64,000 nucleotides of DNA from Waddliaceae bacterium (GCA_963724325.1 CAVRUH010000007.1:128001-192000); one strand, 5' to 3'; counted from the first letter of the stretch, positions 12,728 through 44,602 are shown. A program made the numbers and translations. The notes: generated by a model from the sequence alone, not told the origin.

Positions 12728-14191
12728 ATGCCATCAACAGGAATATACAACCAGCCTCTAGCATTATTGACCGATCTTTATCAATTGACCATGTCCTATG
12801 GCTATTGGAAAAATGGGCTCGATAAAAAAGAAACAGTTTTTCAACTGTTTTTCCGTAAACAACCCTTTAAAGGTGGATTTACCGTTGCCGCAGGCCTCGA
12901 AATGGCCATAAAATTCATCGAAAACTTTAAATTCGAAGAGAGTGATTTCGCATATCTCGCAACACTTAAAGACTCCACCGGTCACAACCTATTTACCCCT
13001 GATTTTTTTGACTACCTCCGTGATTTTAAATTCACCTGCGATATCGACGCCGTTCCTGAAGGTACTATCGTTTTTCCATACGAACCTCTTCTTCGAGTCA
13101 CCGGACCTCTCATCCAATGCCAACTTCTCGAAACACCTCTGCTTAATCAAATTAATTTTCCCTCGCTCATTGCGACCAAAGCTGCTCGAGTCTGCCTTGC
13201 TGCCAAAGGAGACAGCGTCATGGAATTTGGCCTCCGCCGGGCTCAAGGGATCGACGGAGGCATGTCGGCCAGCCGCGCTGCCTATATTGGCGGCTGTTCA
13301 TCCACCTCAAACGTCCTCGCCGGAAAACTCTTTAATATCCCCGTCGCCGGAACCCATTCACACAGCTGGGTCATGATATTCGAAAAAGAAGAAGAGGCTT
13401 TTAAAGCCTATGCTAAAGCCTACCCTACAAATAGCGTTTTTCTCGTCGATACATTCAACACCATAGAAGGTGTTAAAAAAGCAATACGCATTGGAGAATG
13501 GCTTCGCTCACAAGGGAATGAATTGGCCGGCATCAGACTTGATTCCGGAGACCTCGCTCAACTTTCTATCATCAGCCGCAAAATGCTTGACGATGCTGGA
13601 TTTAAAGATGCCAAAATCGTAGCCAGCAACGAACTCGATGAAACTATCATTAACGAATTAAAGCAACAAGGAGCTCAAATTTCGGTCTGGGGAGTAGGGA
13701 CCAACCTTGTCACAGGTAAACATCAAGGCGCGCTCGATGGAGTATATAAGCTTTCAGCAGTACGTGATCCAGGTGAACCATGGCACTACAGACTTAAACT
13801 TTCTGAGCAAATGACAAAAATATCCGACCCTGGAATCCTTCAAATCCGCCGCTTCAAAACGGACAATGAAAACATCGCAGATGCCATCTACGACATACAT
13901 TCTGATGTCTCCAATGGATGCGTCATCTATGATCCGTTAGATCATACTCGTGAAAAAAAATTGGGCAATGGAATGGAAAGCGTCGATCTTTTAGTACCCA
14001 TCATGCGAAAAGGACAAACCGTATATAAATTTCCTAAACTTTCTGATGTGAGGCAGAATACCCAAAAGGAACTTAATCAATTTGCGCAGGGGATAAAGCG
14101 ATTTTTGAATCCCCATCTCTATTTTGCTGGAATTGAAAAGTCTCTTTATGAGAAAAAAGTTGAATTAATTAAGCATATACGGAAGTTATGA
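12728..14191 (+). CDS. pncB: Nicotinate phosphoribosyltransferase
   Basis: LLTDLYQLTM, EFGLRRAQG, GTHSHSW, GIRLDSGD, GVGT. Confidence 0.95.
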   Translation: MPSTGIYNQPLALLTDLYQLTMSYGYWKNGLDKKETVFQLFFRKQPFKGGFTVAAGLEMAIKFIENFKFEESDFAYLATLKDSTGHNLFTPDFFDYLRDFKFTCDIDAVPEGTIVFPYEPLLRVTGPLIQCQLLETPLLNQINFPSLIATKAARVCLAAKGDSVMEFGLRRAQGIDGGMSASRAAYIGGCSSTSNVLAGKLFNIPVAGTHSHSWVMIFEKEEEAFKAYAKAYPTNSVFLVDTFNTIEGVKKAIRIGEWLRSQGNELAGIRLDSGDLAQLSIISRKMLDDAGFKDAKIVASNELDETIINELKQQGAQISVWGVGTNLVTGKHQGALDGVYKLSAVRDPGEPWHYRLKLSEQMTKISDPGILQIRRFKTDNENIADAIYDIHSDVSNGCVIYDPLDHTREKKLGNGMESVDLLVPIMRKGQTVYKFPKLSDVRQNTQKELNQFAQGIKRFLNPHLYFAGIEKSLYEKKVELIKHIRKL

Positions 14192-14805
14192 AAGCATTAT
14201 TAGTCGTGGATATTCAGAATGACTTTCTTCCTGGCGGAGCTTTGGGGGTCAATGGAGGCAATGAGATTATACCAATTGTTAACGCTCTTTTGGAAAAGCC
14301 CTTTGATCTTATTGTTGCATGTAAGGATTGGCATCCTTTGAATCATTGTAGTTTTGCGAAGACGCATAATAAAAGGGTAGGGGATCAGATTGAACTTATG
14401 GGAAGAAAGCAGATACTCTGGCCGGTGCATTGTGTTCAGAATACCTTTGGAGCAGAATTTTCTTCAAAACTTGATTCTTCGAAAATTGAAAAAACCTTTT
14501 TGAAGGGGACAGAGGCGCAAATTGACAGTTATGGGGCTTTTTTTGATAATGGCCATTTGCGTTCGACGGGACTTGATGATTATCTTAAGAGTAAAAAGAT
14601 TACGGACCTTTACATAGCTGGATTGACAACGGATTATTGTGTGAAGTATACTGTGCTTGATGCGTGTAAACTGAAATATAATACTTACGTGATACAGGAT
14701 GGATGTCGTGCAGTCAACCTCAATCCTGGTGATGGGGTAAATGCTCTCGATTTAATGGCTCAGTCTGGTGCGCACATAATTAATTCGATAGAATGTATAT
14801 TTTAG
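14188..14805 (+). CDS. pncA: Nicotinamidase/pyrazinamidase
   Basis: VDIQNDFLPGGAL, DWHP, WPVHCVQ, GLTTDYCV. Confidence 0.95.
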   Translation: MKALLVVDIQNDFLPGGALGVNGGNEIIPIVNALLEKPFDLIVACKDWHPLNHCSFAKTHNKRVGDQIELMGRKQILWPVHCVQNTFGAEFSSKLDSSKIEKTFLKGTEAQIDSYGAFFDNGHLRSTGLDDYLKSKKITDLYIAGLTTDYCVKYTVLDACKLKYNTYVIQDGCRAVNLNPGDGVNALDLMAQSGAHIINSIECIF

Positions 14806-15090: not shown

Positions 15091-15164
15091 GGGGCAATAG
15101 CTCAGTCGGTTAGAGCAGCGGACTCATAACCCGCGGGTCACTGGTTCAAGTCCAGTTTGCCCCA
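15091..15164 (+). tRNA. tRNA with CAT anticodon, most similar to tRNA-Ile2 (lysidine) type; CCA not encoded
   Basis: Acceptor GGGGCAA/TTGCCCC, D-arm AGCTCAGTCGGTTAGAGC, anticodon loop CTCATAA, T-arm ACTGG-TTCAAGT-CCAGT; resembles E. coli ileX; lacks initiator features. Confidence 0.93.
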
Positions 15165-15779
15165 CATTTTTTTTACAGGACAAACTTATGACACTCATAG
15201 AATCCAAAATGGAATTTGCCGAAAGGAACCATGCGGTACTTCTATCCCTAGAGGCTCAGATTGTAGCGCACTATCAAAAACGTCCTCGCCTTCATGATCA
15301 CAATGTGATTCGCGTTTTAGAGGCTCTCATAAAGCACTTTAGGGCTTTAGCGACAAATTTCCCATTGCCTCAGCATTCATTATCTGAATTCGAGGGTGAA
15401 ATTTATCTTAGCATTCAATACAATCTAGAAAAATCGGAAGCCCTAACTCCGAATGATTCCTGTGTCCTTTTAAAGTTCCTCAAAAAATCTGTAGAGCTAA
15501 ACAACAAGAGATCGGGCTCACAGGGTTACTTAAACTTCATCAGCCGCTTCATCGAAGTTGAAATAGAGGATTAGAAACCCGAGTCACTCACCTTATTAAC
15601 ATTAAAATATGTGAGTTAGGCTTCCGCATTCCCTAAATGGTTATTTTCAAGAAAAACTTATTTGTTTTTACTCTTCAATAACACAATTGATTTTCAGTGA
15701 CTTATCAGCTTTAAAGCATAATCTTCACGTGTTCAAGAAGAGCCTTCGTTCGCTTCGCTCACTACGGCCAGATGCGCCC
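15123..15779 (+). repeat. About 657-bp direct repeat, copy 1 (tRNA 3' half, 128-aa gene and downstream sequence)
   Basis: Near-identical to 23270-23927; the first ~250 bp recur at 28444-28695. Confidence 0.95.
15188..15574 (+). CDS. Hypothetical 128-aa protein, copy 1
   Basis: ORF repeated at 23335-23721 with 2 amino-acid changes; C-terminal GSQGYLNFISRF motif. Confidence 0.8.
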   Translation: MTLIESKMEFAERNHAVLLSLEAQIVAHYQKRPRLHDHNVIRVLEALIKHFRALATNFPLPQHSLSEFEGEIYLSIQYNLEKSEALTPNDSCVLLKFLKKSVELNNKRSGSQGYLNFISRFIEVEIED

Positions 15780-15819
15780 TCCCTTATTTTTTGCCTTAGC
15801 GAGCGCAGCGTGCGAAGGC
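15742..15819. repeat. GC-rich imperfect palindrome (REP-like)
   Basis: GCCTTCGTTCGCTTCGCTCACTACGGC ... GCCTTAGCGAGCGCAGCGTGCGAAGGC; only the left arm is present in the second repeat copy. Confidence 0.65.
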
Positions 15820-17128: not shown

Positions 17129-17378
17129 ATTCACAGACATAGGTAACACTTTGATTCACAAACATAGGTAACACTTTTCAAAATATGGTATAATACTCTC
17201 ATCATTAACAATTTAGGGAGTATTTATGCCTTGGGAGAACTTGAAAGTGGAAAATCTTAGGTTAAAACTGATTCAATCCTTCTTGAAGGGTGAAGAGACA
17301 ATGACAGACTTATGTTTAGAGAATGGAATAAGTCGAAAAACTGGGTATAAATGGTTAGCGAGATATGAGAAATATGGG
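17129..17378 (+). mobile_element. Left-end fragment of an IS481-family element
   Basis: Tandem ATTCACA(G/A)ACATAGGTAACACTTT repeats, then MPW...TDLC...GISRKTGYKWLARY...G HTH typical of IS481 transposases. Confidence 0.75.
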
Positions 17379-18242
17379 GCCACTGTGCTTATGGAATGCA
17401 ATCAATTGGAAACTTGGCTTTTTGAATCACCAGAGCCTTCTGAAACAGCATCGACTAATGCAGCACACTGCATAAAATGTTGGCGTGATTATCTTGAAAT
17501 TAAAGATGCTTACTATGGGGATTTTGAGGAGTTTGAGTTGCCTGAGCCGAAAGAGGGAGAAATTCTGCAAGATTATATCATGCGCATGGCAAGGTTGGTT
17601 GAAGAGGAAGGAAAAGGGTCTAGACTTGAGTGGCGTGCGCTCAAATCCTTTTTGGGTTACATGCGAAATTTGGCTCATGAAGAAATTGCTTTCATCGAGC
17701 AAATCTTTCCTTTTAAAATGAATATCCACGATTCAAGGATTATTCGACTGATTGAGCCGGAGGTTTACCCGATCTCACAGGCAATTGCCGCGGACATTCT
17801 CAAGGAACTGGCCAGGATGTGTAAATATGGAAGGCCGAATGCTAAGCATGGGGCTGCTGAAGCACTTGGGTTGTGCTGGTTGTGTTTATCAGCATCGCGC
17901 ATGCGATTGCCTATCACTCTCACTGATATTCATGGCACGAAAAAAACGTCAGTTTTTGCCGATGAAAAATGTGCTAAATTGCTGGTACCAACTATCTTTG
18001 GAAATAGGTCTCTAAGAATCTCGCGACGACTGGCAAAATACCTGTCAGCGCTTGCTGGGATTTCATCAATAGATCCAAGAAAAACTATTCTGCAGAGGCC
18101 TAAGAGGTCATTAATGAGAGTATTGGATAGAGCTATTGAAAATCTTAGACTCGATCCAAAATTAGGAAATATAACTTTTGTAACCTTAATTTCTTCGCCC
18201 GACATCTCGGGTGGCGATCATCGTTATGTCCGTAATTCTTAA
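17226..18242 (+). CDS. Chimeric ORF: IS481 HTH fused to a degenerate tyrosine-recombinase-like domain
   Basis: The first ~50 aa are a transposase HTH; the rest follows integrase catalytic-domain spacing (LGLCWLCLSASRMR, VPTIFGNRSLRI, LGNITFVTL) but lacks HxxR and a clear catalytic Tyr. Confidence 0.5.
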   Translation: MPWENLKVENLRLKLIQSFLKGEETMTDLCLENGISRKTGYKWLARYEKYGATVLMECNQLETWLFESPEPSETASTNAAHCIKCWRDYLEIKDAYYGDFEEFELPEPKEGEILQDYIMRMARLVEEEGKGSRLEWRALKSFLGYMRNLAHEEIAFIEQIFPFKMNIHDSRIIRLIEPEVYPISQAIAADILKELARMCKYGRPNAKHGAAEALGLCWLCLSASRMRLPITLTDIHGTKKTSVFADEKCAKLLVPTIFGNRSLRISRRLAKYLSALAGISSIDPRKTILQRPKRSLMRVLDRAIENLRLDPKLGNITFVTLISSPDISGGDHRYVRNS

Positions 18243-18336
18243 TAGATAAAAAGTGTCCATCGCTGTGCCGACGTGATTCGATCCATTTCATTTACAATGA
18301 GCGCAATTCCGAAATTAACAACATCAGGAGGCGCCA

Positions 18337-18542
18337 ATGAGCGATTATCAGTATTTGGATATAAATCAAATTGTAGAGGGTGGCAATACCCCTTTTCATT
18401 AGGGCAATTACGTCACTACCTAATTATGCGGCACAAAAATAATCTTGAGATTGCAGTCCGAAAGATTGGAAAGCGGCTGTATTTGCGTAAGGATCTTTTT
18501 GAACAATGGATAGAAGATCAAAAGGAGAGGAAAAATGGATAA
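18337..18542 (+). pseudogene. Excisionase/AlpA-like small DNA-binding protein, frameshifted
   Basis: AGGAGG RBS then MSDYQYLDINQIVEGG; continues in another frame as YPFSLGQLRHYL...RKIGKRLYLRKDLFEQWIE. Confidence 0.6.
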
Positions 18543-18890
18543 TTTTCTCCTCGATGAAAAAGGTGTTTGGTTTGCGCCACCCACACATTCCCTTGGTAGA
18601 TCATCACGGAAGCAAGGGAACCCTGCAAGATTGGCAACAATATATTGCCAAATTTTGTGTGGACAATTCGCGACTTGGCTTTTGTGTAAGTGTGGGGTTT
18701 ACTTCACCCCTTCTTTATTTGTTAGGGGAAGAAAATGGAGGTTTTAACCTTCGAGGACCGAGCAGCGGAGGCAAAACAACTGCGCTAAAAGTTGGTCTCT
18801 CAACTTATGGAAGTGAAAAGATGCTCCATTCGTGGCGAGCTACATCAAACGGTCTTGAATCAATTGCGGCCCTTCACAATGATTGTCTCC
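18535..18890 (+). pseudogene. DUF927 helicase-domain fragment
   Basis: GTLQDWQ..IA...NSRL, GGFNLRGPSSGGKTT (Walker A), SWRATSNGLE..AALHND; truncated. Confidence 0.8.
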
Positions 18891-19175
18891 AAGGAGTTGC
18901 AAGTCTTACTTAGGAAAAATGGATATTCTGATGCAAAGGAAATATCAGCCAAACTCATTGAGCTCTATTCCCGACAGAATCAACGCTTGGAAGAGGACAT
19001 TCAAAAGCTAATTAAGCAAAAGCTTACGAATGACACATCAAATAAACTCACCTTCATGCTTGGTTTGATCCCTACAGTGGATAACACAGACAAAGTCCTG
19101 AAATATGAGCGCTCCCTACAAAAATCGATTTTCCAGAACCTCCTTATGTTGAAAAAACTGCAAGGGGCTTTCTAG
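18891..19175 (+). pseudogene. C-terminal fragment of a hypothetical protein
   Basis: Ends DKVLKYERSLQKSIFQNLLMLKKLQ; no own start, joined to the DUF927 fragment. Confidence 0.4.
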
Positions 19176-19277: not shown

Positions 19278-20285
19278 TCAGAAGGTGCCATAGAGGTAGT
19301 TCCAATATGCCGTGAATATTTCAGACTGTTCTGAGGTCAGAGGCTCAACAATAATAAAGCTTTCATCACTGCGTGTAAATGAAGATTGTGACCAGTTTGC
19401 CGAACCATTAACCAAAATACTGTTATCGATGCACATAAGCTTATTATGCATGAAGCTTAATTTTGGGTTGACCTTAACCTCTATCCCTGCCGCCATTAGC
19501 TTTGGTAGATTTCCACCAAAATCAGGTGCTACCACCTGTACTTTTATTCCTCGTTGGTGGGCTTTAATTACTGCATTTGCAAGATCATTGTTGGTCCAAA
19601 CCATCATGGCAATATGGATGCTTGTATTCGCTTGATCGATTTTTTCAATGAGAAATTGTTTAGATTGCTCGTTGATTGACTTTTCTACTTTTTTTTGTGG
19701 AAACCCATCATGAGGCAGAAGACAAAAATAGATGTCTTGACTGAGTAGAGAAATAAGTAATGGTCCATGTTCGGTTCGGTGAGCACTTAAGCGAAATATA
19801 TCTGCTTCGTGATGAAGATATTGCGCTAACTCAGTTGAATTAAATCTTACCATTAAATTTTCTTGGGTTTGATATGCAGATGTTGTAAAGTTTGCGGATC
19901 CAATCCAAATTTCACTTTCATCTACAACCAGTATCTTGTGATGAAGATGACCTTCTCCTGTCGTCCTCGTCACAATTTCAATATTTGGCAGCTTTTTGCT
20001 TGCAATTTCACCTAAATGGTCTCTATCGATCACGACTGTGACTTTTAATCCCTCGTTTGCTTTCTGATTGAGTGCTGCGATAATTTCGGGATCAGATAGG
20101 CTGAATGTAATAATCAGAATTGATTTTTCAGCGTGAAGAATGCTTTCCTTTATCGAAACGCTTAAGTGTTTACGGTCTTGGGTATGATATAGCTGTGCGT
20201 CAGCTGCTACTGTAGCTTCAAGGCTGCCTACGCAAAATACCATAGCTGCTAATAGACTGAAAATTGATAATTTAAATTTTAACAT
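19278..20285 (-). CDS. Exported phospholipase D superfamily protein
   Basis: Signal peptide; two HKD motifs (HHKILVVD...GSANFT and HNKLMCID...GSANWS). Confidence 0.92.
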   Translation of the reverse strand: MLKFKLSIFSLLAAMVFCVGSLEATVAADAQLYHTQDRKHLSVSIKESILHAEKSILIITFSLSDPEIIAALNQKANEGLKVTVVIDRDHLGEIASKKLPNIEIVTRTTGEGHLHHKILVVDESEIWIGSANFTTSAYQTQENLMVRFNSTELAQYLHHEADIFRLSAHRTEHGPLLISLLSQDIYFCLLPHDGFPQKKVEKSINEQSKQFLIEKIDQANTSIHIAMMVWTNNDLANAVIKAHQRGIKVQVVAPDFGGNLPKLMAAGIEVKVNPKLSFMHNKLMCIDNSILVNGSANWSQSSFTRSDESFIIVEPLTSEQSEIFTAYWNYLYGTF

Positions 20286-20299
20286 GGTTAACCTTCCTT

Positions 20300-21259
20300 T
20301 TAATTATTCCAAGCTTGCAATAGATTTTGTCTCAATTTATCTCTCCTCATGGGGTCGAATGTAGAAGATTTGATTAAATTGCGAAGTTCGAGCTCCCAAA
20401 TCTTAAGCTTGCCAGGCTGAATTTTTGTATAACGTTTTATGATAAGCGGTGATGTAGGATTAAGTACCCCACTAATGCCTAAAACAAGTCGCAATTCTTG
20501 TGGAAATTCATCTGAAGGAGTGTCGAGGAAATATTCACTGATCAATTGATTCTCAGCAATGAATCCATTGGGATATGATGCATACCCCACTGTATTTCCA
20601 AAAGCATATAAAGAGACAGAGCTATCAAAAAATTGCAGAAGAACGCCGGCTTTACTGTCCAGATGTTGATGTGAGATAGTATAAGCCACCTCTATCAATG
20701 ATGAGTCCATTCCAAGTTCTTCGAACATGTGTTTCAAGTCCTTTCGCTGTTGATAGGTGTCGCTACCTACATTCTTCGTAAAATTTAAGACTGAGTTTAA
20801 CCCTAGGCGGTTGTGATTCGAGTAGATGCAGAAGTTCAAGGGGAAAGTACTTTCTGCGACCAACTGCGAATAGTGTATTTCACTTACAAATACCCGTGAA
20901 AAAACTTCTAGAGATTCTAGAAAGTTGTTTTTTTTAAATGGCGTTGAAACGAAATGAAAATCCTTTCTGATGGGCACATCTAGGACCTCTTCGACAATTA
21001 TACGAATAATGTCTTGGTAAACTAGAAAATCTAAACTGTCTCCATGATATCCCATGAAGCTGATATTTTCCTGAGCTATAGCTTTATCGAATAACTCACG
21101 GTAATCTAATCCAACACCTTTTCCTTTCAGATTATACTTAATCTGATCGAGTCCAACAAATGCAACATATTGCTTTGAAGGAGATTCAAATTCAGCACCA
21201 TGGATTCTGATGGTCCCACAAATAAATAACAAGCTTAAAAGTAGGATTTTATTATTCAT
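20300..21259 (-). CDS. Exported protein, possible ADP-ribosyltransferase-like fold; paralog of 21252-22274
   Basis: Signal peptide; FMGYHGDS..F.VYQDIIRII, RKDFHF, FPQELRLV, LNP.SPL. Confidence 0.55.
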   Translation of the reverse strand: MNNKILLLSLLFICGTIRIHGAEFESPSKQYVAFVGLDQIKYNLKGKGVGLDYRELFDKAIAQENISFMGYHGDSLDFLVYQDIIRIIVEEVLDVPIRKDFHFVSTPFKKNNFLESLEVFSRVFVSEIHYSQLVAESTFPLNFCIYSNHNRLGLNSVLNFTKNVGSDTYQQRKDLKHMFEELGMDSSLIEVAYTISHQHLDSKAGVLLQFFDSSVSLYAFGNTVGYASYPNGFIAENQLISEYFLDTPSDEFPQELRLVLGISGVLNPTSPLIIKRYTKIQPGKLKIWELELRNLIKSSTFDPMRRDKLRQNLLQAWNN

Positions 21260-22274
21260 TTTTTTCTCTCCACATGTTCAATAACAATTCACGATACTGT
21301 ACGACTTTTGTTTCATCGTAAGGCAGTGTTCTGATTGCTTCACGTAAGTTAGATTCATACTCATTGATTAGTTCGGGATCATTCCTGTCAAAGCGCATGA
21401 TATATAGAGGGGAATACGGATTTAGAGTGACGGAGTTGTTAATGACAAGCCGGAATTGTGCAGGAAAAGCTGTAGAATTAACGCCAAGGAATATTTCGGA
21501 CATTCTTTTCTCATTGAGAATTGGACGTCCGCCGGGCAAGGCATTATAGCATAATTGATTTATCAAATCATAATGATTTTGAAATGCATTGTGATGAGAA
21601 AAGTCGAAGAATTGGAATAACACAGCATTATCCATGGTCATCAAAGGGTTGCCTATTGCAAATAAATCAGGTATCGCTTCGGTTGGTATTCCTAAAGAAT
21701 CAAATAAATAATTTAGTTGAGTTTGGAATCCAACGGTCGTTGCAGATCTATTCCTTGTAAACCAGTAGACAGTGCATTCCCCAAAGTTATCGAAATTCCC
21801 AAAGAGTGAATAATTCATCGACAACAACTGCTCTCGTTGTTCTGGTAACGCGTCAATCACTGCAGGATAGTCTTTCAGGAATTGCTCCTCACTTTCCCGA
21901 TTTAGCATAGGTTTTCCTGGGATGCGCAGAAAGTGAAAGTCTTTTCTAATATGGATCTCGCAAATTTCCTCTATTATTATCCGAATAATATCTTGATAAA
22001 TACGAAATCCTTGAGTGCTGCTATGGTATCCAAAAAAACCAAGCTCTTCGTGGGGAATGATGTGCTCGAAGAAATTGCGATGCTCCAAAGACAACCCGTT
22101 TGTCTTCAGCGCTTGCAATATTTTCTCGTAATTGTAAAATCCGCAAAAGCGATTTGTTGGGGATGCATATACGGCTTCGGTTCGAATCGGCATATCGAAA
22201 TCTACGATTGCCGGAGTGGCAAGCAATGATAAATTACAAAGTGCAATTAAAATAAATAAAATTAATCTAATCAT
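21252..22274 (-). CDS. Exported protein, possible ADP-ribosyltransferase-like fold
   Basis: Signal peptide; FFGYHSST..F.IYQDIIRII, RKDFHF, FPAQFRLV, LNPYSPL. Confidence 0.55.
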   Translation of the reverse strand: MIRLILFILIALCNLSLLATPAIVDFDMPIRTEAVYASPTNRFCGFYNYEKILQALKTNGLSLEHRNFFEHIIPHEELGFFGYHSSTQGFRIYQDIIRIIIEEICEIHIRKDFHFLRIPGKPMLNRESEEQFLKDYPAVIDALPEQREQLLSMNYSLFGNFDNFGECTVYWFTRNRSATTVGFQTQLNYLFDSLGIPTEAIPDLFAIGNPLMTMDNAVLFQFFDFSHHNAFQNHYDLINQLCYNALPGGRPILNEKRMSEIFLGVNSTAFPAQFRLVINNSVTLNPYSPLYIMRFDRNDPELINEYESNLREAIRTLPYDETKVVQYRELLLNMWREKNE

Positions 22275-22425
22275 AATTATTTAACCAATATATTTAAGAT
22301 GAATACATTTTAACAATTATCAATTTATAAGTCAATCATAAACATGCATTTTTATATCGATTTGAATGGACCAATGCAATATGCTTTGTGGGGATAAGTC
22401 TAAATTCAACCATAAAGGAGAAATT

Positions 22426-23019
22426 ATGTTGAACAGTTTTATCCGAAAGTTTTTATTTATCATTGTTCTTACGACATCGCTGTCATCCCCTATTTTTGCT
22501 GTGGATGACTTTCAAGTTGAGTATCAACCACAGGTCATCGAAAAAGTAATTCAGTTTGAGAAGAAAAGCATCTTAAAGCAAAAAGCAAATGGATACCTAT
22601 ATGTCGAAGTGTCTCGAGATTTTATTGCCGAGGCTCTTCCTCTAATTGATGCCCCGGGAAAAATTGTACACCCGAGTCATTATACTAGCAAGAAAGGGAT
22701 TGGAGCCCATATCAGCATTATTTATGAAAATGAGTTGATTGAACATGAAATCTGGGAGATCGATGAGTTGGGGCAAGAGTTCACATTCTCGGTCATGGAG
22801 TTGAGGACGGTAAAACTAAATGACAATAACAAGATGAAAAAACTTTGGCTTTTGGCAGTAGCTGCTCCCGAGTTAGAGAAACTTCGTGAGGGTTATGGTC
22901 TATCATCCCGTTTAAAAAACCATGATTTCCATATAACAATAGGAACTCAAGTACCTGGTAAAGTCTATGTTTTATTCGATGAGATAATCATTGAAGAGGA
23001 GCTGGAAGAAGCAGCATAA
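22426..23019 (+). CDS. Exported 2H phosphoesterase superfamily protein
   Basis: AAGGAG RBS; signal peptide; two HxS/T motifs (GAHISI, DFHITIG). Confidence 0.8.
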   Translation: MLNSFIRKFLFIIVLTTSLSSPIFAVDDFQVEYQPQVIEKVIQFEKKSILKQKANGYLYVEVSRDFIAEALPLIDAPGKIVHPSHYTSKKGIGAHISIIYENELIEHEIWEIDELGQEFTFSVMELRTVKLNDNNKMKKLWLLAVAAPELEKLREGYGLSSRLKNHDFHITIGTQVPGKVYVLFDEIIIEEELEEAA

Positions 23020-23269: not shown

Positions 23270-23927
23270 CTCATAACCCGCGGGTCACTGGTTCAAGTCC
23301 AGTTTGCCCCACATTTTTTTTACAGGACAAACTTATGACACTCATAGAATCCAAAATGGAATTTGCCGAAAGGAACCATGCTATACTTCTCTCACTGGAG
23401 GCTCAGATTGTAGCGCACTATCAAAAACGTCCTCGCCTTCATGATCACAATGTGATTCGCGTTTTAGAGGCTCTCATAAAGCACTTTAGGGCTTTAGCGA
23501 CAAATTTTCCATTGCCTCAGCATTCATTATCTGAATTCGAGGGTGAAATTTATCTTAGCATTCAATACAATCTAGAAAAAACGGAAGCCCTAACTCCGAA
23601 TGATTCCTGTGTCCTTTTAAAGTTCCTCAAAAAATCTGTAGAGCTAAACAACAAGAGATCGGGCTCACAGGGTTACTTAAACTTCATCAGCCGCTTCATC
23701 GAAGTTGAAATAGAGGATTAGAAACTGGAGTCACTCACCTTATTCACATTAAAATATGTGAGTTAGGCCCTCCGCGTACCCTCAATGGTTATTTTCAAGA
23801 AAAACTTATTTGTTTTTACTCTTCAATAATGCAATTGATTTTCAGTGACTTATCAGCTTTAAAGCATAATCTTCACGTGTTCAAGAAGAGCCTTCGTTCG
23901 CTTCGCTCACTACGGCCAGATGCGCCC
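23270..23927 (+). repeat. att-like tRNA 3' half (23270-23311, identical) and direct repeat copy 2
   Basis: 42-nt exact match to 15123-15164, then near identity through the 128-aa gene. Confidence 0.95.
23335..23721 (+). CDS. Hypothetical 128-aa protein, copy 2
   Basis: Near-identical to 15188-15574. Confidence 0.8.
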   Translation: MTLIESKMEFAERNHAILLSLEAQIVAHYQKRPRLHDHNVIRVLEALIKHFRALATNFPLPQHSLSEFEGEIYLSIQYNLEKTEALTPNDSCVLLKFLKKSVELNNKRSGSQGYLNFISRFIEVEIED

Positions 23928-24042
23928 GGCGTTATTAAAGTAGACCCAACTGTCTAGCTAAAAAGAGGAACATTTATTATTATGTGAAAGTTTGCGAAGT
24001 AATACCGAAAAATAATGTTCTCCATTGAGATTAGAGAGATTA

Positions 24043-24369
24043 TCACAAGACAAACTCGATAATTAGACAAAAAGTGTAGACCATTCCTAAAAAGAGTAGT
24101 GGCAGCAAGTGATAAAGTAGAAAAACAGGCAGGGAGGGATCATGGAGATGCTTCCACCCTTTATAGATTCCAAAAGGTGATGAGAGTGGCGATAGAAGTG
24201 TAATAATTATGAAAGTCATTATCGTTTTTGGATAATCAAGTTCATAATCCGCAAATCCCATGGGTAGAATCCATGTAATAAGTAGCAATAGGATAAAAAG
24301 AAATATGTTTAGGACGGTGAAACCTCTTGCAAGATAAAGCCTGATACTAGCCTTTTCTATAAATTCCAT
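24043..24369 (-). CDS. Small integral membrane protein
   Basis: 108 aa with three hydrophobic segments. Confidence 0.55.
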   Translation of the reverse strand: MEFIEKASIRLYLARGFTVLNIFLFILLLLITWILPMGFADYELDYPKTIMTFIIITLLSPLSSPFGIYKGWKHLHDPSLPVFLLYHLLPLLFLGMVYTFCLIIEFVL

Positions 24370-24577
24370 CTATTAATTCCTTTAAGGTTCTCTGATACTG
24401 CGGATCGTCAAATCCATGCTGTGGACCCGAACTCTTTTGCTGATAGATTATCCGAGTATTCCTAAGTTCTTCAAGCCTTTTTTTATATCCATTGAATTTT
24501 TCCTTCTTATAGATTTCGTACTCTACTCCACTAAACATAAGAATTGCTCCTAGAAGTTGTTTTAAAAATATATTTTG

Positions 24578-25852
24578 TTATCTAATGTGAAAAGAAGATA
24601 CTAACTTATTCCATTCTTCGGAAATTTGTGGAGTTTCGCTATTAAAAGATTGAGTAATTTGATAGAGTCTTCTTTTTTTGAGCACAAACAATGTTCTATA
24701 AATTTTACCTGAATTTTCTGCTAGAAGCTCAATAGAGGGACAACCTTCATGCTCGCCTAAGTTCCAAGATAAAACAATCATTTTATTGCTCAATCCGAGC
24801 CAAGCTAGATCAATGGAACCGTTTTTATCCATTTGACTTTGAATCTCGTTTATCAGCATAGAGATTGAAGGGTCAGAATATTCAAGAATAATTTCGCTAA
24901 ACATCGTCATATTTAAAACTTTCAGCTCAGGGTCTTCAAAATCTGGGTGATTAATCTCTTTTAGAATACCCATATAAGTAACCATTGGTAAAGTGACAAT
25001 GGATTCGATAAAATAGCCGCTGTCACCATACTCTCCAAATAAAGTCTTGGGAGCGAAAGGCCCAAGTCTAGAATAGAAAATTCTGTGATAAATGTTATAT
25101 TTTGGAGGAATATTAATGTCATAAGTGTTCCGACCCAATAAGATATTGCGTTGTACAGTTTCACAAAACAAATTTGCCCACAAAAGTTTATGCCAATCAT
25201 AGTTGAGAATGCTTTGATACTGTCGGTATGATTCTGTAGTAGTTATCCAAGAAGGAATCATTGTGTTTTGAGATTCAATTTTAAATCCTAAATGATATGC
25301 GGGTGTTCCCGAAAAAGCTGGATATATTCCCCATGCAGAAGCTAAATAGAAGATATTTTGAATTTCTAGGCGATATACGAATTGATTTATAGCAACAAGG
25401 AGTCCACGCCGTTCAGATAAATTTCGAAAATTTACGCTAAAATTTGTGGCGCTATTATCGCAATAATACACAGACTCTTTGCCATAAACATGTCCTTTTT
25501 TAAAATAGGAAAAGCCGTCGTTTTCAATTTTATTTAAAAGATCATCCATCCAACTTTTATATTTTACTGAGTCATTTGCTATTGAATTTGGAAGTTTATA
25601 AATCCAAACTTTAAAAGGACCCATGTGTGTTTCACTATAATAATGGGTGATTTCCACATTTTCTTCATGATAGCTTTCCATTCTAGTAGCATCCCAAGTG
25701 TGAAGAGTAATGCGATGATCTTTTGGCCCTGGAATTTCTATTGTATATCCCTTGTTAAGCGATAGAAGCCCCATCAAGTCTATTGCTATTCCCCCAGATA
25801 AAGACCCAAAATGCACCAAAATAAAAAATGAGTATATTAATTTTTTCATCAT
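24578..25852 (-). CDS. Exported hypothetical protein
   Basis: 424-aa ORF with signal peptide; C-terminus loosely PsbP/DcrB-like. Confidence 0.65.
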   Translation of the reverse strand: MMKKLIYSFFILVHFGSLSGGIAIDLMGLLSLNKGYTIEIPGPKDHRITLHTWDATRMESYHEENVEITHYYSETHMGPFKVWIYKLPNSIANDSVKYKSWMDDLLNKIENDGFSYFKKGHVYGKESVYYCDNSATNFSVNFRNLSERRGLLVAINQFVYRLEIQNIFYLASAWGIYPAFSGTPAYHLGFKIESQNTMIPSWITTTESYRQYQSILNYDWHKLLWANLFCETVQRNILLGRNTYDINIPPKYNIYHRIFYSRLGPFAPKTLFGEYGDSGYFIESIVTLPMVTYMGILKEINHPDFEDPELKVLNMTMFSEIILEYSDPSISMLINEIQSQMDKNGSIDLAWLGLSNKMIVLSWNLGEHEGCPSIELLAENSGKIYRTLFVLKKRRLYQITQSFNSETPQISEEWNKLVSSFHIR

Positions 25853-25994
25853 AATGTCAATTATTTTACAGTAATTGTTCTAATAGTGCAACTAAAAAGA
25901 CGAGCTAACGGCAATTAGGAGTTTGTTAAATAAAAGATCAAAAATAGAATAGGGTGATTTTGGCCCCAGAAATATTTTTTTTGAGCTCCAAACT

Positions 25995-26265
25995 GATTTG
26001 AGTTTTTGATCAGCTGATAAAATATTTCAGGGCAAAAGCAACTAATTTTCCATTCCAAGAGTCTAAATTTTCTTTGCCTATTGAAAATGATTTATATGAT
26101 TCGCTTAAGGAATGTCTTGAGGAAACTGAAGGCAAAACAGCTAATGAAGCATATAACATTTTTAAATTCTTAAAAAAATCAGTCGAATTTTGGAACAGAG
26201 AAGGGGGCTCTCAAGGCTGCCTTACATATATATCGCGCTTCATAGATGTTGAAGAAAAAAAATGA
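25995..26265 (+). pseudogene. Divergent, decayed paralog of the 128-aa protein
   Basis: VFDQLIKYFRAKATN...FKFLKKSVEFWNREGGSQGCLTYISRFIDVE aligns with VLEALIKHFRALATN...LKFLKKSVELNNKRSGSQGYLNFISRFIEVE. Confidence 0.7.
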
Positions 26266-26647
26266 TGGGACCCGGGCGTGAAAAACTGACATTTTAAAGT
26301 AAGCATACGCGTATTAAAAGTAAGCGCATATGCACGCCCGACCCCAATCATTTCTAAAGTTATCTTCGATGCCCCTGGCAACATCTTTAGGGTCATCAGG
26401 GTCAATCTAAATAAAAAAAATCTTAATATGTATCCTACTTAAAAATTTAAAAAATCCTCCCAATTTAACCCCCCCTTGTTTTCAATGCAAAATCAGATAG
26501 AAAAATTTTAATTCAAGGGTTTATGTCTATTTTGTTGGCTAGGGATTACAGTGCGACACCTACAGCGTAATCTACAGCGTAATCTCCATAAGTCTGCAGA
26601 AGTAGTTTCCACGAATAGTACCATCACAGAGAGGTGTTACCCATACC

Positions 26648-27409
26648 TTAGACAATAATTAATTCTAGAAATGATTTTTGGTGAGCTTTGGGACGCAAAT
26701 AGGGTTCCTTTTTTGTATGAACAACGATTGCGTAGAGAATTCCTGCTTCCGCAAGAGCTATTGCTTCTTTTTTAAGAAGCCACACACTGTCCTCATGTGA
26801 ATTACCAACTAAAAATTCAGTAATGACATGTCGTTTATTGACTCGAACTCCCTGAACTTTCTTTACATCAATATATTCCTCACGTCCCTCTCTCCATCCT
26901 TCATGTTTTTTCATAGCATCAAGCAATTGTTCATATTCTTTGTCGTTTAGGGAACGAATCGTGCGATCCATATCAAATTTAGTAAAAAATTTAATCGCTT
27001 TTCGATAGTTAATGACTTCTTCTGTATCGGGTTGTCCCTTTTTGACACCAGTGTAAGTACGTACAAATTCATTGAGGGTGCAATCAATATACATATTGCC
27101 TTCTTTTAAACGTAAGGCCTGTGCCCTTCTACCAGTTTCATAATCAGGATAAACTGCAAACCTATAATCTTTGTTTTCTTTATTAGGTATCTTCCCAGCG
27201 GAACCGATAGCTCCGTTCCTTTTTGCGAAATCTCCCATTGCGTGATTACCAGGATTATTATTTCTCCATGATCTAGTACTTGCTTGATCCACTGGCTGTT
27301 CTGGATAGGCTTTCCAAAAGCGCTTTAAATGATTCCCATCTTCATCATAATAGATGACCGAATTTTCTGGCCCTTCTACAACTTTTATCCATTTATTTTG
27401 AGTCTTCAT
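26648..27409 (-). CDS. Lysozyme-like (RNNNPGN family) protein with DUF3892-like C-terminal domain
   Basis: RSWRNNNPGN, FAVYPDYETGRRA, MKKHEGW; C-terminal EAIALAEAG...PYLR. Confidence 0.65.
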   Translation of the reverse strand: MKTQNKWIKVVEGPENSVIYYDEDGNHLKRFWKAYPEQPVDQASTRSWRNNNPGNHAMGDFAKRNGAIGSAGKIPNKENKDYRFAVYPDYETGRRAQALRLKEGNMYIDCTLNEFVRTYTGVKKGQPDTEEVINYRKAIKFFTKFDMDRTIRSLNDKEYEQLLDAMKKHEGWREGREEYIDVKKVQGVRVNKRHVITEFLVGNSHEDSVWLLKKEAIALAEAGILYAIVVHTKKEPYLRPKAHQKSFLELIIV

Positions 27410-27577
27410 ACATTTACTTCAGGTTTAATCAACAAAATAGAATAAATTATAAATTATTAATTTTAAATAACTTGTCTACGAATTATAGCAGATTAGGAGA
27501 AATTTTTCTAATCAAAAATAAATGGTTCAAAATGGTCCCCTTTTGGTAATATCGCCTCTTCTTGGTAGGGAGAAATT

Positions 27578-28273
27578 ATGGTTGATGCAAAACGTATTAA
27601 CAGAAATGGTGCATGGATTTCTTTTTCTATAGCTCACAGCCTCCTTATTTTTTTGGGAATACTCGTTGTTGGGTGTGAAAAAAACGGTGAGATTGACGTA
27701 GATGATCTCAATTCTGAGAAAAATATTTTTATTAGTAGGGTTCTTGATGCAGAGCTAGGCGAGGGACCTTTTTTTATAAACTATTCGTTGAGTACAGTCT
27801 TTTTTTCACAAGATATTGTAAGCATCTTTGGAGAATTCACACGTTATACAGACTTCCCACATGATCGTAAGCATTATGAAGGAAAAACATTTTGTAGAAT
27901 AAATGGAAAATTCCAATTAATATCTTTCGATGATCTTTTTTCTGCTGAAAAGCAAAAAGAATTTATCAGAAAGTATTGTGAGGATGTTCTCAAGGCTAAG
28001 TCTATAGGCTATTTTGGTGAGGATCCACCTCTTCGCGATCAACTTGATTTAAAGGAAATTCAAACATTTTTAATTCATGAAAATTTTTTTATCATCGTAT
28101 TCCAACGTTATATTGTAGCCGGTCTTGACGATTATCCGACAACATTACGAATTCCTTACAATATTTTGAAGGGTCATATTAATCCAAACATTCCTTTGAT
28201 CACACTCTTAGAAAAAACAGTAAAATCAAATTCTTTTATTTCTTCTTGGGAAGATGTTTTGGGTGGTTCGTAG
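27578..28273 (+). CDS. RsiV/DUF3298-like putative lipoprotein
   Basis: LVVGC lipobox-like motif; YTDFPH...TF, ISFDDLF, IVFQRYIVA...LRIPY. Confidence 0.65.
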   Translation: MVDAKRINRNGAWISFSIAHSLLIFLGILVVGCEKNGEIDVDDLNSEKNIFISRVLDAELGEGPFFINYSLSTVFFSQDIVSIFGEFTRYTDFPHDRKHYEGKTFCRINGKFQLISFDDLFSAEKQKEFIRKYCEDVLKAKSIGYFGEDPPLRDQLDLKEIQTFLIHENFFIIVFQRYIVAGLDDYPTTLRIPYNILKGHINPNIPLITLLEKTVKSNSFISSWEDVLGGS

Positions 28274-28443
28274 ACACACACGAAGCCTCTCTTTTTATTG
28301 CATTTCCCGTGCACTGGCGGTGCAACGGTGCAGTACTTTATCCATTTTCAACCGTCAAAATTCGGTAGCAATAAATACATAAGTCATTTATTATCTTACT
28401 CAAAGCGGTTGAGTGGTGTTGATTGGAGTGGTAGTCTTCCTCC

Positions 28444-28695
28444 CTCATAACCCGCGGGTCACTGGTTCAAGTCCAGTTTGCCCCACATTTTTTTACAGGA
28501 CAAACTTATGACACTAATAGAATCCAAAATGGAATTTGCCGAAAGGAATCCTGCAATACTTCTCTCCCTAGAGGCTCAGATTGTAACGCACTATCAAAAA
28601 CGTCCTCGCCTTCATGATCACGATGTGATTCGCGTTTTAGAGGCTCTCATAAAGCACTTTAAGGCCTTAGCGACAAATTTCCCATTGCCTCAGCA
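28444..28695 (+). repeat. att-like tRNA 3' half (28444-28485, identical) and truncated 128-aa gene, copy 3 (from 28508)
   Basis: Match to 15123 onward stops abruptly next to the IS481 end. Confidence 0.92.
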
Positions 28696-28699
28696 GGTG

Positions 28700-29470
28700 C
28701 GGTTACAGACATAGGTTACACTTTTATTGTTAAAATGTTATATAAAAAGCAGGGGGCAACTAGCCCCCTGCCAAAAAAACATCCGTCACCCATCGTCTCT
28801 CGGTCGCAGCGGGGAGTTTTCTTCTTGGTACCAATAATTATACTATGTATGGTCAAAAGATGCATTAGGAAAATACACAAGAAAACATCTAGAATTTTGA
28901 GTTTTGAGGGAGCTGTGGGGGTTTCTTCTTGGTCGGGGGTTTGGGGGCTGGCCCCCAATATATTCACTTCCGATCGTTGTCATTAGCGCTGCCTCCTTCT
29001 CTTAACTTTTGGTTTTTCAAGCCCTTCCTTTACAAGTTTTCCTAAGTATATAGGTCCATAATAAACATCATATTCCCCCTGTTCATTAGCCTTAAGACCA
29101 ACATATTCTCCAGTAAGCGTTTGTCCAATATAATGATCATTCTGATGTAACCATAAACAACCACTTGCACAAATCTTTCTAACAATCATTTTTTGTGTGT
29201 CGTATTCTGGTTTCCTTAAAACTCCATCCCAAGTCCGTAAGGATTTAGTATAAACACTTGCTGGTGTTTGCATATTCAAGGCTTCATGAGGCCTTTCAAA
29301 GTTATATTCGTCTAAGAATTTGCTGTTCGCTTGTATTTGCAATACAAGGGATGCTTTAGCAGGGTTTGCTACTTCTTGTTGTAGTGTAGAATGGAATCTC
29401 TCGTGCCTTCCATTTTCCTCAGGATGTCCTGGATTTATCCACTCAGGGATAACTCCAGCTTTAATTAGAT
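28700..29470 (-). mobile_element. Right-end fragment of an IS481-family element
   Basis: Transposase C-terminus (PGHPEENGRHERFHSTL, YNFERPHEAL...TPASVY) and terminal motif ACAGACATAGGTTACACTTT at 28705-28724, matching the 17133 motif. Confidence 0.82.
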
Positions 29471-29871: not shown

Positions 29872-30650
29872 TTAAAGTTCTAAAAGCTTTTTCATAGTTT
29901 TTTCAAAATGAAGCTTACGTAGCCTGCCAGAGGGGTCTTGCGCTTCCAATTTAACCCAGTCATTTGGAGAGGCATTGTCAAGCCAGATTCGTAGATTTTT
30001 CTGAAGAGTTTTAAACCATTTCGGATGCTGTTTTGCCAATACGTTGAATTCAATTAGAGCCCGATCAGAAAAATCGCCTAATTGGGAAGTGACATACCAA
30101 ATACCATAAAGATCCTTAAGAATCTTTAAAGCACTTTTGCGTTTCGTAAAAGTAAGCCCCTTATGGAATATCCAAGCACCTGGTGTAACTACATTTCCTG
30201 CAATGTTTGAGTGGGTATGAAACTTTATGGTTGTCTGCAAGCTTAAGGTTAAATAGCTTAGCGGTTGGGCAACCACACCAGCAATGACGACATTTTTATT
30301 TTTGTTTTCCTGACTAGAGTCATCCGTCAAAAATTCAATTTCAATTTCAGCGCCTGCAATTTCCTTCACATAGGCTTCTGTCGCAGGATCTCTAAATCTT
30401 TAAAAACATGATTGAAACCTGCTTCTCGAAGATAATTTTGAATGTTCTTTTTCGAAATTTGTGGGATTTTCCTTGGAATAAGAGAATCGATATCTCTTGT
30501 TCCTACTGGAGGGTTCTTTAATTTTGGATCAGCTAGATAAAGCTTGTAGATAAAGAGTGCAAATCCACCTCCAATGACGATAAAATCTCGCCATGGACCA
30601 ATAGATTCTAAAAATTCTGAAATGATTTTGTCTTCTTGATTAGATGTCAT
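29872..30650 (-). pseudogene. Nucleotidyltransferase toxin (AbiEii/GSU2403-like), split by one frameshift near 30390
   Basis: IVIGGGFAL...GTRDID motif; second part has IEFLT, HKGL...R...K..KDL. Confidence 0.78.
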
Positions 30651-31379
30651 GACGATTTACCACTTTTATAAATACGCTTAAGCTCTGGAAGACGTTCTGC
30701 CATAAATTCTGCTTGTTCTTGTCCACGTAAAGGAAAGTGATATAAATCCAAAAAAGTCAAAATAGAAGGAGAGACATTGATATCTAGATTTGAGTCAGAA
30801 GCATGCTTAAGCAAGCTTTTGTAGTAAGGTTCTATAAGCAAAACTTCATAGCCTCTTTCTTGAGGTTCTAATAGTAGCTTTTTCTCAAGTTGTGGTCTAA
30901 CCAAAGGATCAAGCAGGTATAGTTCAAGAGTGTTTAAGTTGGTGTTTTTATATCCATGCGCTTCAGCAGCAGAATGAAGAGCCAATGCTACCTTATTGCT
31001 TAGATTTGACTTTTTAATTGCCTCTAAAAGCTCTGCTTTATCTTGGAACCCAGAACGATAAGTTCTCATTTTGCATTTTTTTACGATGCTGTAATGTTCT
31101 AGCCAGCTTTCAAGAAGGCGTTTGGGATCTTTCAAGAAAAACTTTTTGGCGGTTCTTATTCCTTCGGCTTGCAAAATTCCTTTTAAAACTAAAGTCCCAA
31201 AGACGCGTTGTACTGATCCAAGACTTACCCCAGCTTCTTTAGACACATTTCGCACGGATAACTCTCGACTCTTTGATGCCTTCTCTCAGCAACCAATCAA
31301 GAACCACGGCAGATTTGTCCGAATAGATATTCCCTTCCACAGGTTTTTCATTCGAGCCTATCAAAAACCGACCTTCCAT
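30647..31379 (-). pseudogene. AbiEi-like winged-helix antitoxin, frameshifted near 31265
   Basis: AAGGAGG RBS before ATG 31379 (MEGRFLIG...VLDWLL), continuing as VRNVSKEAGVSLGSVQRVF...LLESW...FLDLYHFPLRGQEQAE. Confidence 0.75.
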
Positions 31380-36616: not shown

Positions 36617-37414
36617 GTGTTTATGGAAACATCTTTAGGTAAACGAATAAAAGCCTTGCGTGAGGCTCTGAGAATAAGCCAAGAGGAATTATCGCAAAGA
36701 TTAGCATTGGATAGAGCTTCGCTGTCTTTAATCGAAAATGACAAACGCTCATTGAAAGCTGATGAACTTATTTTACTATCAAAATCTTTGAATATTTCGA
36801 TTGATGAGTTGTTAAATCTCAAGTCGTCAACAGAAGTTATTTTGGAACAGGCTCAGAAGCCAAAAGAAAAAAGAAATGACTTACGGATTAGCGTTCCAAG
36901 AAAAAACCTGAAAAAGTTTAAGGAAGTTCTTCTCTATATATTGGGAAAGGTTGGAGCAAAACCAAATGTGGGTGAAACTGTCTTGTATAAGCTGCTGTAC
37001 TTTATAGATTTCAACTATTACGAGAAATATGAAGAACAACTCATTGGAGCCACATACATCAAAAACCATCATGGCCCTACCCCAATCGAGTTTCAGTCCA
37101 TTGTAAATGAGATGATAGAAAACAAAGAAATCGAAGTTGTGAAAAGTAAATATTTTCAGCATCTCCAAAAAAAATATCTACCTCATCAAGAACCCGATCT
37201 TTCTGTCTTTAATGCAAATGAGATCAAAGTGATAGATGATGTGTTGCAAAAATTATCTGGCATGAATGCTTCAACAATAAGTGAATACTCTCATCAAGAT
37301 GTCCCATGGATGGTCACATCGGAAAGGCAAAAAATTGATTATGAATCTGTATTTTACCGAACCCCTGCATATAGCGTAAGAGAGTATAGCAACGATGAAA
37401 TTCAAGCACATTGA
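36617..37414 (+). CDS. XRE HTH + DUF4065 (Panacea/SocA-like) antitoxin
   Basis: N-terminal LGKRIKALRE...SQEELS...ASLSLIE; LYKLLYFIDF, HGPTP, ISEYSH.DVPW. Confidence 0.88.
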   Translation: MFMETSLGKRIKALREALRISQEELSQRLALDRASLSLIENDKRSLKADELILLSKSLNISIDELLNLKSSTEVILEQAQKPKEKRNDLRISVPRKNLKKFKEVLLYILGKVGAKPNVGETVLYKLLYFIDFNYYEKYEEQLIGATYIKNHHGPTPIEFQSIVNEMIENKEIEVVKSKYFQHLQKKYLPHQEPDLSVFNANEIKVIDDVLQKLSGMNASTISEYSHQDVPWMVTSERQKIDYESVFYRTPAYSVREYSNDEIQAH

Positions 37415-43660: not shown

Positions 43661-44602
43661 TTAGTCACAGCTGTTTTTATAAATTTCTAGATCAGTCTTT
43701 AATTTACTAACAAGAAAGTGAACAGAAATTTTTTTCAATTTTGTATTTGGATGTTTATTAATAAAATCATAGATTGCTTTTAAAAAAATACAAGCCGCTC
43801 TATCCTTGGGAAATCCAAAAATACCTGTACTAATTGAGGGAAATGCAATACTTGTTTTATTGTGATTGTCTGCGAGCACCAAACTATTATAATAACAAGA
43901 ATAAAGCTGATCTTCTTTTTCAGGACTAGTCTCTCCTTTAGGTCCTGCAACAACGATTACATTGTCAATGTTATAATCTGCCTTAAGTGATCCACTTTTT
44001 ATCAAGGAAGCATAGCCAGAAACATATTTTGATTTATACTGTACTTGCAATTCACGGTGCGCTGCTTTATATTTATGACCACCTTTTTTATGAATTGCCC
44101 CATCAATACCACCACCCCCTCTCAATTGAGTATTAGCTGCATTTACAATAACCTGTGCATTGCTACTGAATATATCTTGTTGGCGAATAGTAACATTAAA
44201 TCGACGAGCTTTCTTGAAAACAATTTTAAGCGTATTGTCATCAATAAAATTTGCTTTCATCTTTGATTTTTGTAATAAATTTAAATCACCTGTATAAGAA
44301 TGCACTAATTTAGAATCACAAGGTGGAATAATTTGATCTTCACTTATTTCATTTAATTTTAAATGTTTTCTTCCTTGAACATTTACCCTTTTATCATTAG
44401 AAGAAAGAGATTCTTTTTTGCTAACACGAGCATACAAATAGGCTGTTCCATATGCAACAGAAAAACCAAAAGGAATCACGACTGTGAAATATGAAAATAT
44501 TTTTAGTACAGCTAAGACATTGGTTTTTGCATCATTTTTTTTATAATTTGAGACATCTTGAAAACCATTAAAATAACTTTTGCAAAAAGTTTTTACTTGC
44601 AT
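43661..44602 (-). CDS. Macro domain (ADP-ribose binding/hydrolase) protein with hydrophobic N-terminal region
   Basis: IVNAAN, GGGGIDGAIH, SIAFPSISTGIFGFP. Confidence 0.88.
   Translation of the reverse strand: MQVKTFCKSYFNGFQDVSNYKKNDAKTNVLAVLKIFSYFTVVIPFGFSVAYGTAYLYARVSKKESLSSNDKRVNVQGRKHLKLNEISEDQIIPPCDSKLVHSYTGDLNLLQKSKMKANFIDDNTLKIVFKKARRFNVTIRQQDIFSSNAQVIVNAANTQLRGGGGIDGAIHKKGGHKYKAAHRELQVQYKSKYVSGYASLIKSGSLKADYNIDNVIVVAGPKGETSPEKEDQLYSCYYNSLVLADNHNKTSIAFPSISTGIFGFPKDRAACIFLKAIYDFINKHPNTKLKKISVHFLVSKLKTDLEIYKNSCD

Follow-up and report, generated by a model that had tools for sequence, protein, structure and literature searches.

The ADP-ribosyltransferase (ART) fold is marked by a split β-sheet of two three-stranded units (PMC9503650). 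In the H-Y-[EDQ] clade, which includes diphtheria toxin, exotoxin A, PARP and DarT, it carries a tyrosine on strand 2 and a catalytic glutamate on strand 5. R-S-E enzymes (cholera/heat-labile, pertussis and C3-type toxins) have an arginine on strand 1, S-T-S on strand 2 and [QE]-x-E on strand 5, and Tpt1/KptA, of the H-H-h clade, has a second histidine on strand 2. Tpt1/KptA and MbcT/RES are ART folds that use phosphate acceptors; the products are ADP-ribose, its phosphate and its cyclic phosphate, on which 2H, macrodomain, PARG and NUDIX enzymes act (PMC8883491 and PMC9503650). DarT requires an extra arginine (PMC8883491). Here we describe two probably exported paralogs with a predicted ART fold, A and B, encoded with a phospholipase D (PLD)-superfamily protein and a 2H phosphoesterase in a 64,000-nucleotide stretch of a Waddliaceae bacterium (GCA_963724325.1, CAVRUH010000007.1:128001-192000), hereafter the window. 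The host is an environmental chlamydia, and the window encodes a CT021-family protein. The features are as follows.

21252..22274, minus strand: paralog A, 340 amino acids, signal-peptide-like N terminus, predicted ART fold
20300..21259, minus strand: paralog B, 319 amino acids, signal-peptide-like N terminus, predicted ART fold
19278..20285, minus strand: PLD, a single-chain double-HKD phosphodiesterase of the PLD superfamily
22426..23019, plus strand: 2H phosphoesterase (Pfam 2H-SAK), divergent, likely start at Met21 of the open reading frame (ORF) from 22366
22307..22335, minus strand: promoter-like site upstream of A, TTGACT-17-TAAAAT, 10/12, TG present, a consensus match only

All four frames are uninterrupted, as a sequence-only reading of the window had held. 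A, B and PLD follow one another in an operon-like order, with an 8-nt overlap between A and B and a 14-nt spacing between B and PLD. Promoter-like sites number 18 in the region versus 14.4 ± 3.5 in shuffles, not a clear excess. A search of sequencing runs listed no RNA run among its matches, and DNA runs with small shares only. A and B share 33% identity over 302 residues (E 5e-43), and the motifs F.GYH[GS][DS] and FP[QA][EQ].RLV reported earlier are present as FFGYHSS and FPAQFRLV in A and as FMGYHGD and FPQELRLV in B. The signal peptides claimed in the same reading are recovered for all four proteins by a hydropathy heuristic (not SignalP), for 2H only from Met21 (start 22426, not 22366); the heuristic also passes 188 of the genome's 1406 long ORFs (13%). 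A and B, which are small and predicted to be soluble, are likely Sec-exported, judging from their N termini.

Predicted fold and conserved residues

Both A and B are predicted to adopt an ART fold. The predicted structures contain the defining split β-sheet of two three-stranded units (PMC9503650, section 3.3.1), and structure comparison supports, at low Z scores, the ART-like fold that had been proposed for both. Diphtheria toxin and its homologues head the match lists of A and B. The top rows, which comprise the diphtheria toxin group, DarT, Tpt1, RES and PARP chains, lie within 1 Z unit. CNFy domain 4 and RCD1 are also among the matches.

Conserved polar residues map on or near the ART motif strands. 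Over the aligned family rows, conservation is 90% for His84, 86% for Arg117 and Asn154, 97% for Gln/Glu273 and 93% for Arg275. A keeps the consensus of His84, Arg117, Asp141, Ser152-x-Asn154, Glu166 and Gln273-x-Arg275. Residue counts were made over 182 well-covered members, 162 non-B and 20 B. His84 lies at the end of strand 1, where ARTs carry His or Arg, and is present in 151 of the 162 non-B members. By the starts of the alignment ranges, it is aligned with what we take to be the first-strand His or Arg of diphtheria, heat-labile and pertussis toxins. Strand 2 reads L-S-x-N. Strand 5 reads Q-x-R in A and in 139 of the 162 non-B members, with Glu in 18. Covariation over 198 sequences loosely supports the pairing of strands 1-3, 3-6 and 4-5, and does not fix the register of strands 2-5.

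In these predictions the family behaves like an ART or NADase, yet it lacks the motif or profile of the H-Y-E, R-S-E, DarT and Tpt1 enzymes. Compared with the H-Y-[EDQ] clade, Ser-x-Asn replaces the strand-2 Tyr and Gln-x-Arg the strand-5 Glu. The diphtheria-toxin-class enzyme suggested by the sequence-only reading is therefore not supported, since the H-Y-E set is absent and His, Ser-x-Asn and Gln-x-Arg stand in its place. The family proteins further differ from that clade in their length (~320 amino acids), large helical insertions, signal peptide, tandem degenerate paralog and lack of a sequence or profile match. Compared with R-S-E enzymes, the family has His on strand 1 and [QE]-x-R on strand 5, whereas S-x-N fits partly. 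It has neither the second strand-2 His nor a KptA profile match that would mark Tpt1/KptA, nor the RES motif, and both Tpt1/KptA and MbcT/RES are cytoplasmic. DarT (PF14487) gives no Pfam match, and hhalign against 12 chlamydial DarT sequences returns a Prob of 0.2 and a score of 13.2, with shuffled controls reaching up to 18.4. The family shares with DarTG an ART with an extra catalytic Arg and a linked macrodomain hydrolase (PMC8883491), but differs in its putative export and in its macro partner, a PF10021/TIGR02452-type PARG that adjoins only 4 of 17 pairs. DarT-family genes occur in 15 of 371 chlamydial genomes (L144-L155), some in frames of 400-480 amino acids that may be fusions. The Tox-ART-HYD1/2, HYE1, RSE and PARP residue lists consulted in PMC3482391 do not contain S-x-N/Q-x-R; this comparison was made by residue lists and Pfam (no match).

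A profile search recovers 621 family representatives at 50% identity, 113 of them with E ≤ 1e-30 (the best 150 of the 621 were surveyed), yet A and B have no match in Pfam, NCBIfam or PHROGs and none in the PDB by single sequence or by profile. Foldseek identified no ART in the PDB, and two ESM Atlas searches gave best scores of 0.82 and 0.81, which are leads only and offer no ART link. Scans of IMG/VR with two alignments yielded no confirmed locus. PLSDB contains no match for A or for its non-chlamydial relative, a Streptomyces murinus plasmid protein. No description of the family was found in the literature; the astARTe catalogue or the 2015 ART review may list it. The available text of PMC12522546 does not mention 'chlamyd', and its supplements could still include the family. 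The accessible parts of the PMC9503650 supplement hold nothing relevant on the two giant viruses described below, and those of PMC4245714 nothing bearing on the family. The ART-like family is real and apparently undescribed, and apparently includes an old pair of enzyme and pseudo-enzyme.

The conserved and the degenerate paralog

The B-type proteins form one clade with a support of 1.0 among the 182 members. Arg117 is present in 161 of the 162 non-B members and in none of the 20 B proteins, 16 of which have Pro in place of Ser152. His84 is kept by 13 of the 20 and Arg275 by 12, the latter compared with 155 of the 162 non-B members. Position 273, Gln in most non-B members, is Glu in 14 of the 20 B proteins. 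Because Gln is the consensus and the B clade has lost Arg117 and, in most members, Ser152, the Gln copy (A) represents the conserved form and the Glu copy (B) the degenerate one. This reverses the earlier, tentative assignment of activity to the Glu copy and of a regulatory role to the Gln copy. On these residues, A is likely the catalytic copy, and B a likely non-catalytic or re-purposed partner.

B is nevertheless under purifying selection, similar to A (nonsynonymous differences, pN, 0.157 and synonymous differences, pS, 0.65 versus the relative genome G089), and by this measure is not decaying. Every B adjoins an A, in 8 of 8 copies from the 400-genome search and in 17 of 17 loci, whereas A-types are often solo. 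The A+B pair is old.

Of 400 genomes from the phylum, 36 contain the family, and none of the 29 scored genomes of a family with small genomes (f4) does; one genome (G005) was left out of the 400-genome family and PLD searches. A set of 17 family loci comprises 15 from chlamydial metagenome-assembled genomes and 2 from 'uncultured bacterium'. The source genome contains five family genes: the island pair, a second pair on contig C5 and a single gene on C1. Downstream of the second B-A pair (G000 C5, L018:5229-8363), and on its strand, lies a microbial PARG with a signal peptide (PF10021, E 1e-21).

In member P0050 the family domain is joined to a NUDIX domain. P0145, a 7,623-residue protein with repeated modules, contains two copies of the family domain; we take it to resemble an actinobacterial polymorphic toxin. 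By structure, the family also has relatives among the uncharacterised proteins of two giant viruses, Mimivirus LCMiAC02 (E 1.6e-9 with A, 2.5e-7 with B) and Hokovirus (1.8e-7 with A, 2.4e-8 with B). A subfamily of 430-565 amino acids (L016, L017, L068-L071 and many profile-search proteins) carries an insertion of 100-200 residues after the conserved Arg loop. P0019 (521 amino acids) combines an A-type N-terminal part with a B-type C-terminal part on a single short contig, either a natural fusion or an assembly artefact.

Neighbouring enzymes and the genomic island

Neighbours were counted by hand over 17 A+B loci, including the window, after removal of duplicates. PLD is the most frequent partner and follows the pair in 7 of 17 loci. 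A 2H gene is no farther than about 1.5 kb away in 5, a microbial PARG adjoins the pair in 4, and a Ppx/GppA-family gene stands by it in 3; two loci have no such partner and one has no context sequence. These counts indicate that A and B form the stable unit, to which at least one exchangeable phosphoesterase is usually added. The sequence-only reading had proposed a fixed four-gene module: the recurrence of A and B, often with PLD, stands, but all four genes recur together only once, in G089, as 2H-Ppx-A-B-PLD on one strand with 2H in two frameshifted pieces. The link to nucleotide or ADP-ribose chemistry suggested in that reading is borne out by the PARG neighbours and the NUDIX fusion.

The PLD protein matches Pfam PLDc_2 (7.5e-45, 152 bits) and contains two complete HxKxxxxD..GSAN motifs (His115 and His280), as expected of the PLD/HKD superfamily. 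In sequence it comes nearest to Zucchini/mitoPLD, Nuc and NucT (PDB E 3e-12 for Zucchini/mitoPLD and 2e-9 for Nuc). It shares two intact HKD motifs with these enzymes and with chlamydial PLD-family proteins, and differs from Nuc, NucT and Zucchini in having both HKD halves in one chain. Pair-linked copies are 42-83% identical to each other, versus 32% to the genome's other PLD. Three of the five best non-self matches in the 400 genomes adjoin an A+B pair, and PLD-linked pairs are spread over several tree branches. The link of PLD to the pair is specific. At solo A-type loci, a secreted protein of ~230 amino acids adjoins the gene in 5 of 5 cases (L009:6953-7663, L011:6990-7664, L015:5063-5746, L135:5974-6417 and L138:5990-6697). 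It has conserved His/Asp motifs and weak matches to Zn-dependent phospholipase C (best E 0.003, under the cut-off), and may replace PLD there.

The 2H protein matches Pfam 2H-SAK (1.7e-17, 64 bits versus a cut-off of 27) and carries the two HxS/T motifs of 2H phosphoesterases, HISI and HITI. Eleven loci of close 2H homologues were fetched; none contains a family gene, and a Ppx/GppA gene stands by 2H in 5 of them. 2H is a loosely linked accessory. A secreted 2H-SAK and a secreted Ppx/GppA-family phosphatase form a recurrent chlamydial two-gene unit, mostly without ART-like genes (L052:7905-9631; L076, L078, L079, L080, L082). PARG-linked pairs form a single clade. PARG occurs in 61 of 401 genomes, and among 30 fetched loci only the source genome's copy lies within 1.5 kb of a family gene. 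The partners also co-occur without ART-like genes, PLD being found beside PARG in L072 and beside a double 2H in L074.

The four genes are located within an 8,147-bp island flanked by 667-nt direct repeats of 97% identity, which the earlier reading missed. Its remaining features are listed below.

15091..15165, plus strand: tRNA-Met(CAT), intact, left integration site of the island
15123..15788, plus strand: left direct repeat, the tRNA 3' half from the anticodon loop plus a 128-residue ORF of no Pfam family
17226..18913, plus strand: mobility remnants, an insertion sequence (IS) 481-type helix-turn-helix (HTH) fused to an unassigned region, a weak HTH_17 match and a truncated DUF927/primase-helicase fragment
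23270..23936, plus strand: right direct repeat, 97% identical, island end

The repeat copies start at the tRNA-Met anticodon loop, and each contains the start of one same 128-residue ORF of no known family. Another island, of 5.2 kb (window 23270-28695), lies in tandem at the same tRNA-Met site and is bounded by a third, partial repeat copy at 28443. The broken mobility genes reported nearby are indeed partial: the IS481-type HTH (17226-18242) matches only the N terminus of the transposase profile, and the DUF927/primase fragment (18506-18913) spans profile positions 146-243 of 284. A 24-nt sequence occurs three times (window 17129-17177 and 28701-28724) by IS481-type and integrase-core remnants, and the copies are probably IS ends. 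The same variable region encodes, 20 kb downstream, a Macro-domain protein (PF01661, E 3e-29; window 43661-44602), and it also contains AbiEi and Panacea antitoxin-like genes (30647-31255 and 36617-37414). The NAD salvage genes pncB and pncA (window 12728-14805) lie directly left of the island. They were rejected as part of the module: pncA is located at other sites in 5 of 5 relatives, so the adjacency is probably due to chance. No tRNA-Met was found within the 3.6 kb fetched around pncA in any of the five.

Proposed function and alternatives

We tentatively favour, at not quite an even chance, a mechanism in which A cleaves nicotinamide adenine dinucleotide (NAD+) and hands the ADP-ribose on, either to water or to an acceptor that bears a phosphate or is a nucleic acid, B binds A and steers or damps it, and the partner enzymes, outside the cytoplasm, prepare ends or remove products. 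The acceptor is inferred from the His, the two conserved Arg residues and the Gln in place of the usual Glu; A would thus resemble Tpt1, MbcT and DarT-type enzymes rather than modify a protein residue as diphtheria toxin does. B would be catalytically crippled. PLD and 2H would make ready or degrade phosphate-linked substrates and products, while PARG, 2H and NUDIX would convert ADP-ribose(-phosphate) adducts to ADP-ribose and adenosine monophosphate. The enzyme classes that handle Tpt1/MbcT products also stand beside the family or are fused to it (PMC8883491; PMC9503650). This chemistry could take place in the periplasm, in the inclusion or in the protist host. A bolder extension is doubtful: that a new His/Ser-x-Asn/Gln-x-Arg ART family forms an exported heterodimer of enzyme and pseudoenzyme, which attaches ADP-ribose to phosphate groups (those of nucleic-acid ends or nucleotides, or phosphate itself) outside the cytoplasm and, with interchangeable PLD, 2H, PARG, Ppx and NUDIX enzymes, makes up a full secreted pathway of writing and clean-up, the family's domain being common to protist giant viruses and actinobacterial toxins.

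Binding between A and B is weakly suggested by modelling. The predicted A:B complex scores 0.56 versus 0.00 for the best control, with a contact agreement of at least 82% between runs and a partner predicted local distance difference test score of at least 86; the mark is reached by 116 of 157 solved pairs and 2 of 215 mismatched pairs. A and B also co-diverge in 11 pairs (Spearman 0.89, 0 of 10,000 permutations). Several points weigh against the favoured mechanism. Passing scores of 0.60 or lower include only 18 of the 157 solved pairs but both passing mismatches, the A:B pass could come from paralogs sharing a homodimer surface, and linkage alone could explain the co-divergence. In addition, the structural matches to ARTs show low Z, high rmsd (root mean square deviation) and large helical insertions.

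These last features would also suit a fold that descends from ARTs but has given up NAD+, as in the ART-like domains of CNFy and plant RCD1, both among the structural matches, or a loose strand resemblance, with some other substrate bound or cut together with PLD. Most members lack the catalytic Glu and the searches show no sequence link to ARTs, but the family-wide polar residues on or near the motif strands and the ADP-ribose-specific contexts of PARG and NUDIX make this improbable. It is unlikely, if less so, that A is an effector which mono-ADP-ribosylates host proteins, with PARG as eraser, B as a targeting or regulatory subunit, and PLD and 2H as separate secreted effectors on the same island. 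The lead of diphtheria toxin in both structural lists and the writer/eraser adjacency at the PARG-linked pairs are consistent with such an effector, and the giant-virus relatives and the two domain copies in P0145, the presumed polymorphic toxin, suggest use in conflict. However, A lacks the conserved strand-2 Tyr and strand-5 Glu, the top structural rows are tied with DarT, Tpt1, RES and PARP, and the PARG link is confined to one clade, phosphodiesterases and phosphatases being commoner partners. That B, with its Glu, is the active ART, A its regulator and the four genes one dedicated module is highly improbable. Six of the 20 B proteins lack the Glu and seven the His, the A-type Gln predominates in members that stand alone, are fused to NUDIX or lie within a toxin, no B is seen without an adjoining A, and 2H accompanies only 5 of the 17 pairs.

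If the fold call holds, A and B add an ART family whose motif lies outside the three recognised clades, with a paired pseudo-enzyme arrangement conserved across chlamydial families. In that case, environmental chlamydiae, which rely on host nucleotides, would possess a secreted system of NAD chemistry, and the family would link them to giant viruses with common protist hosts.
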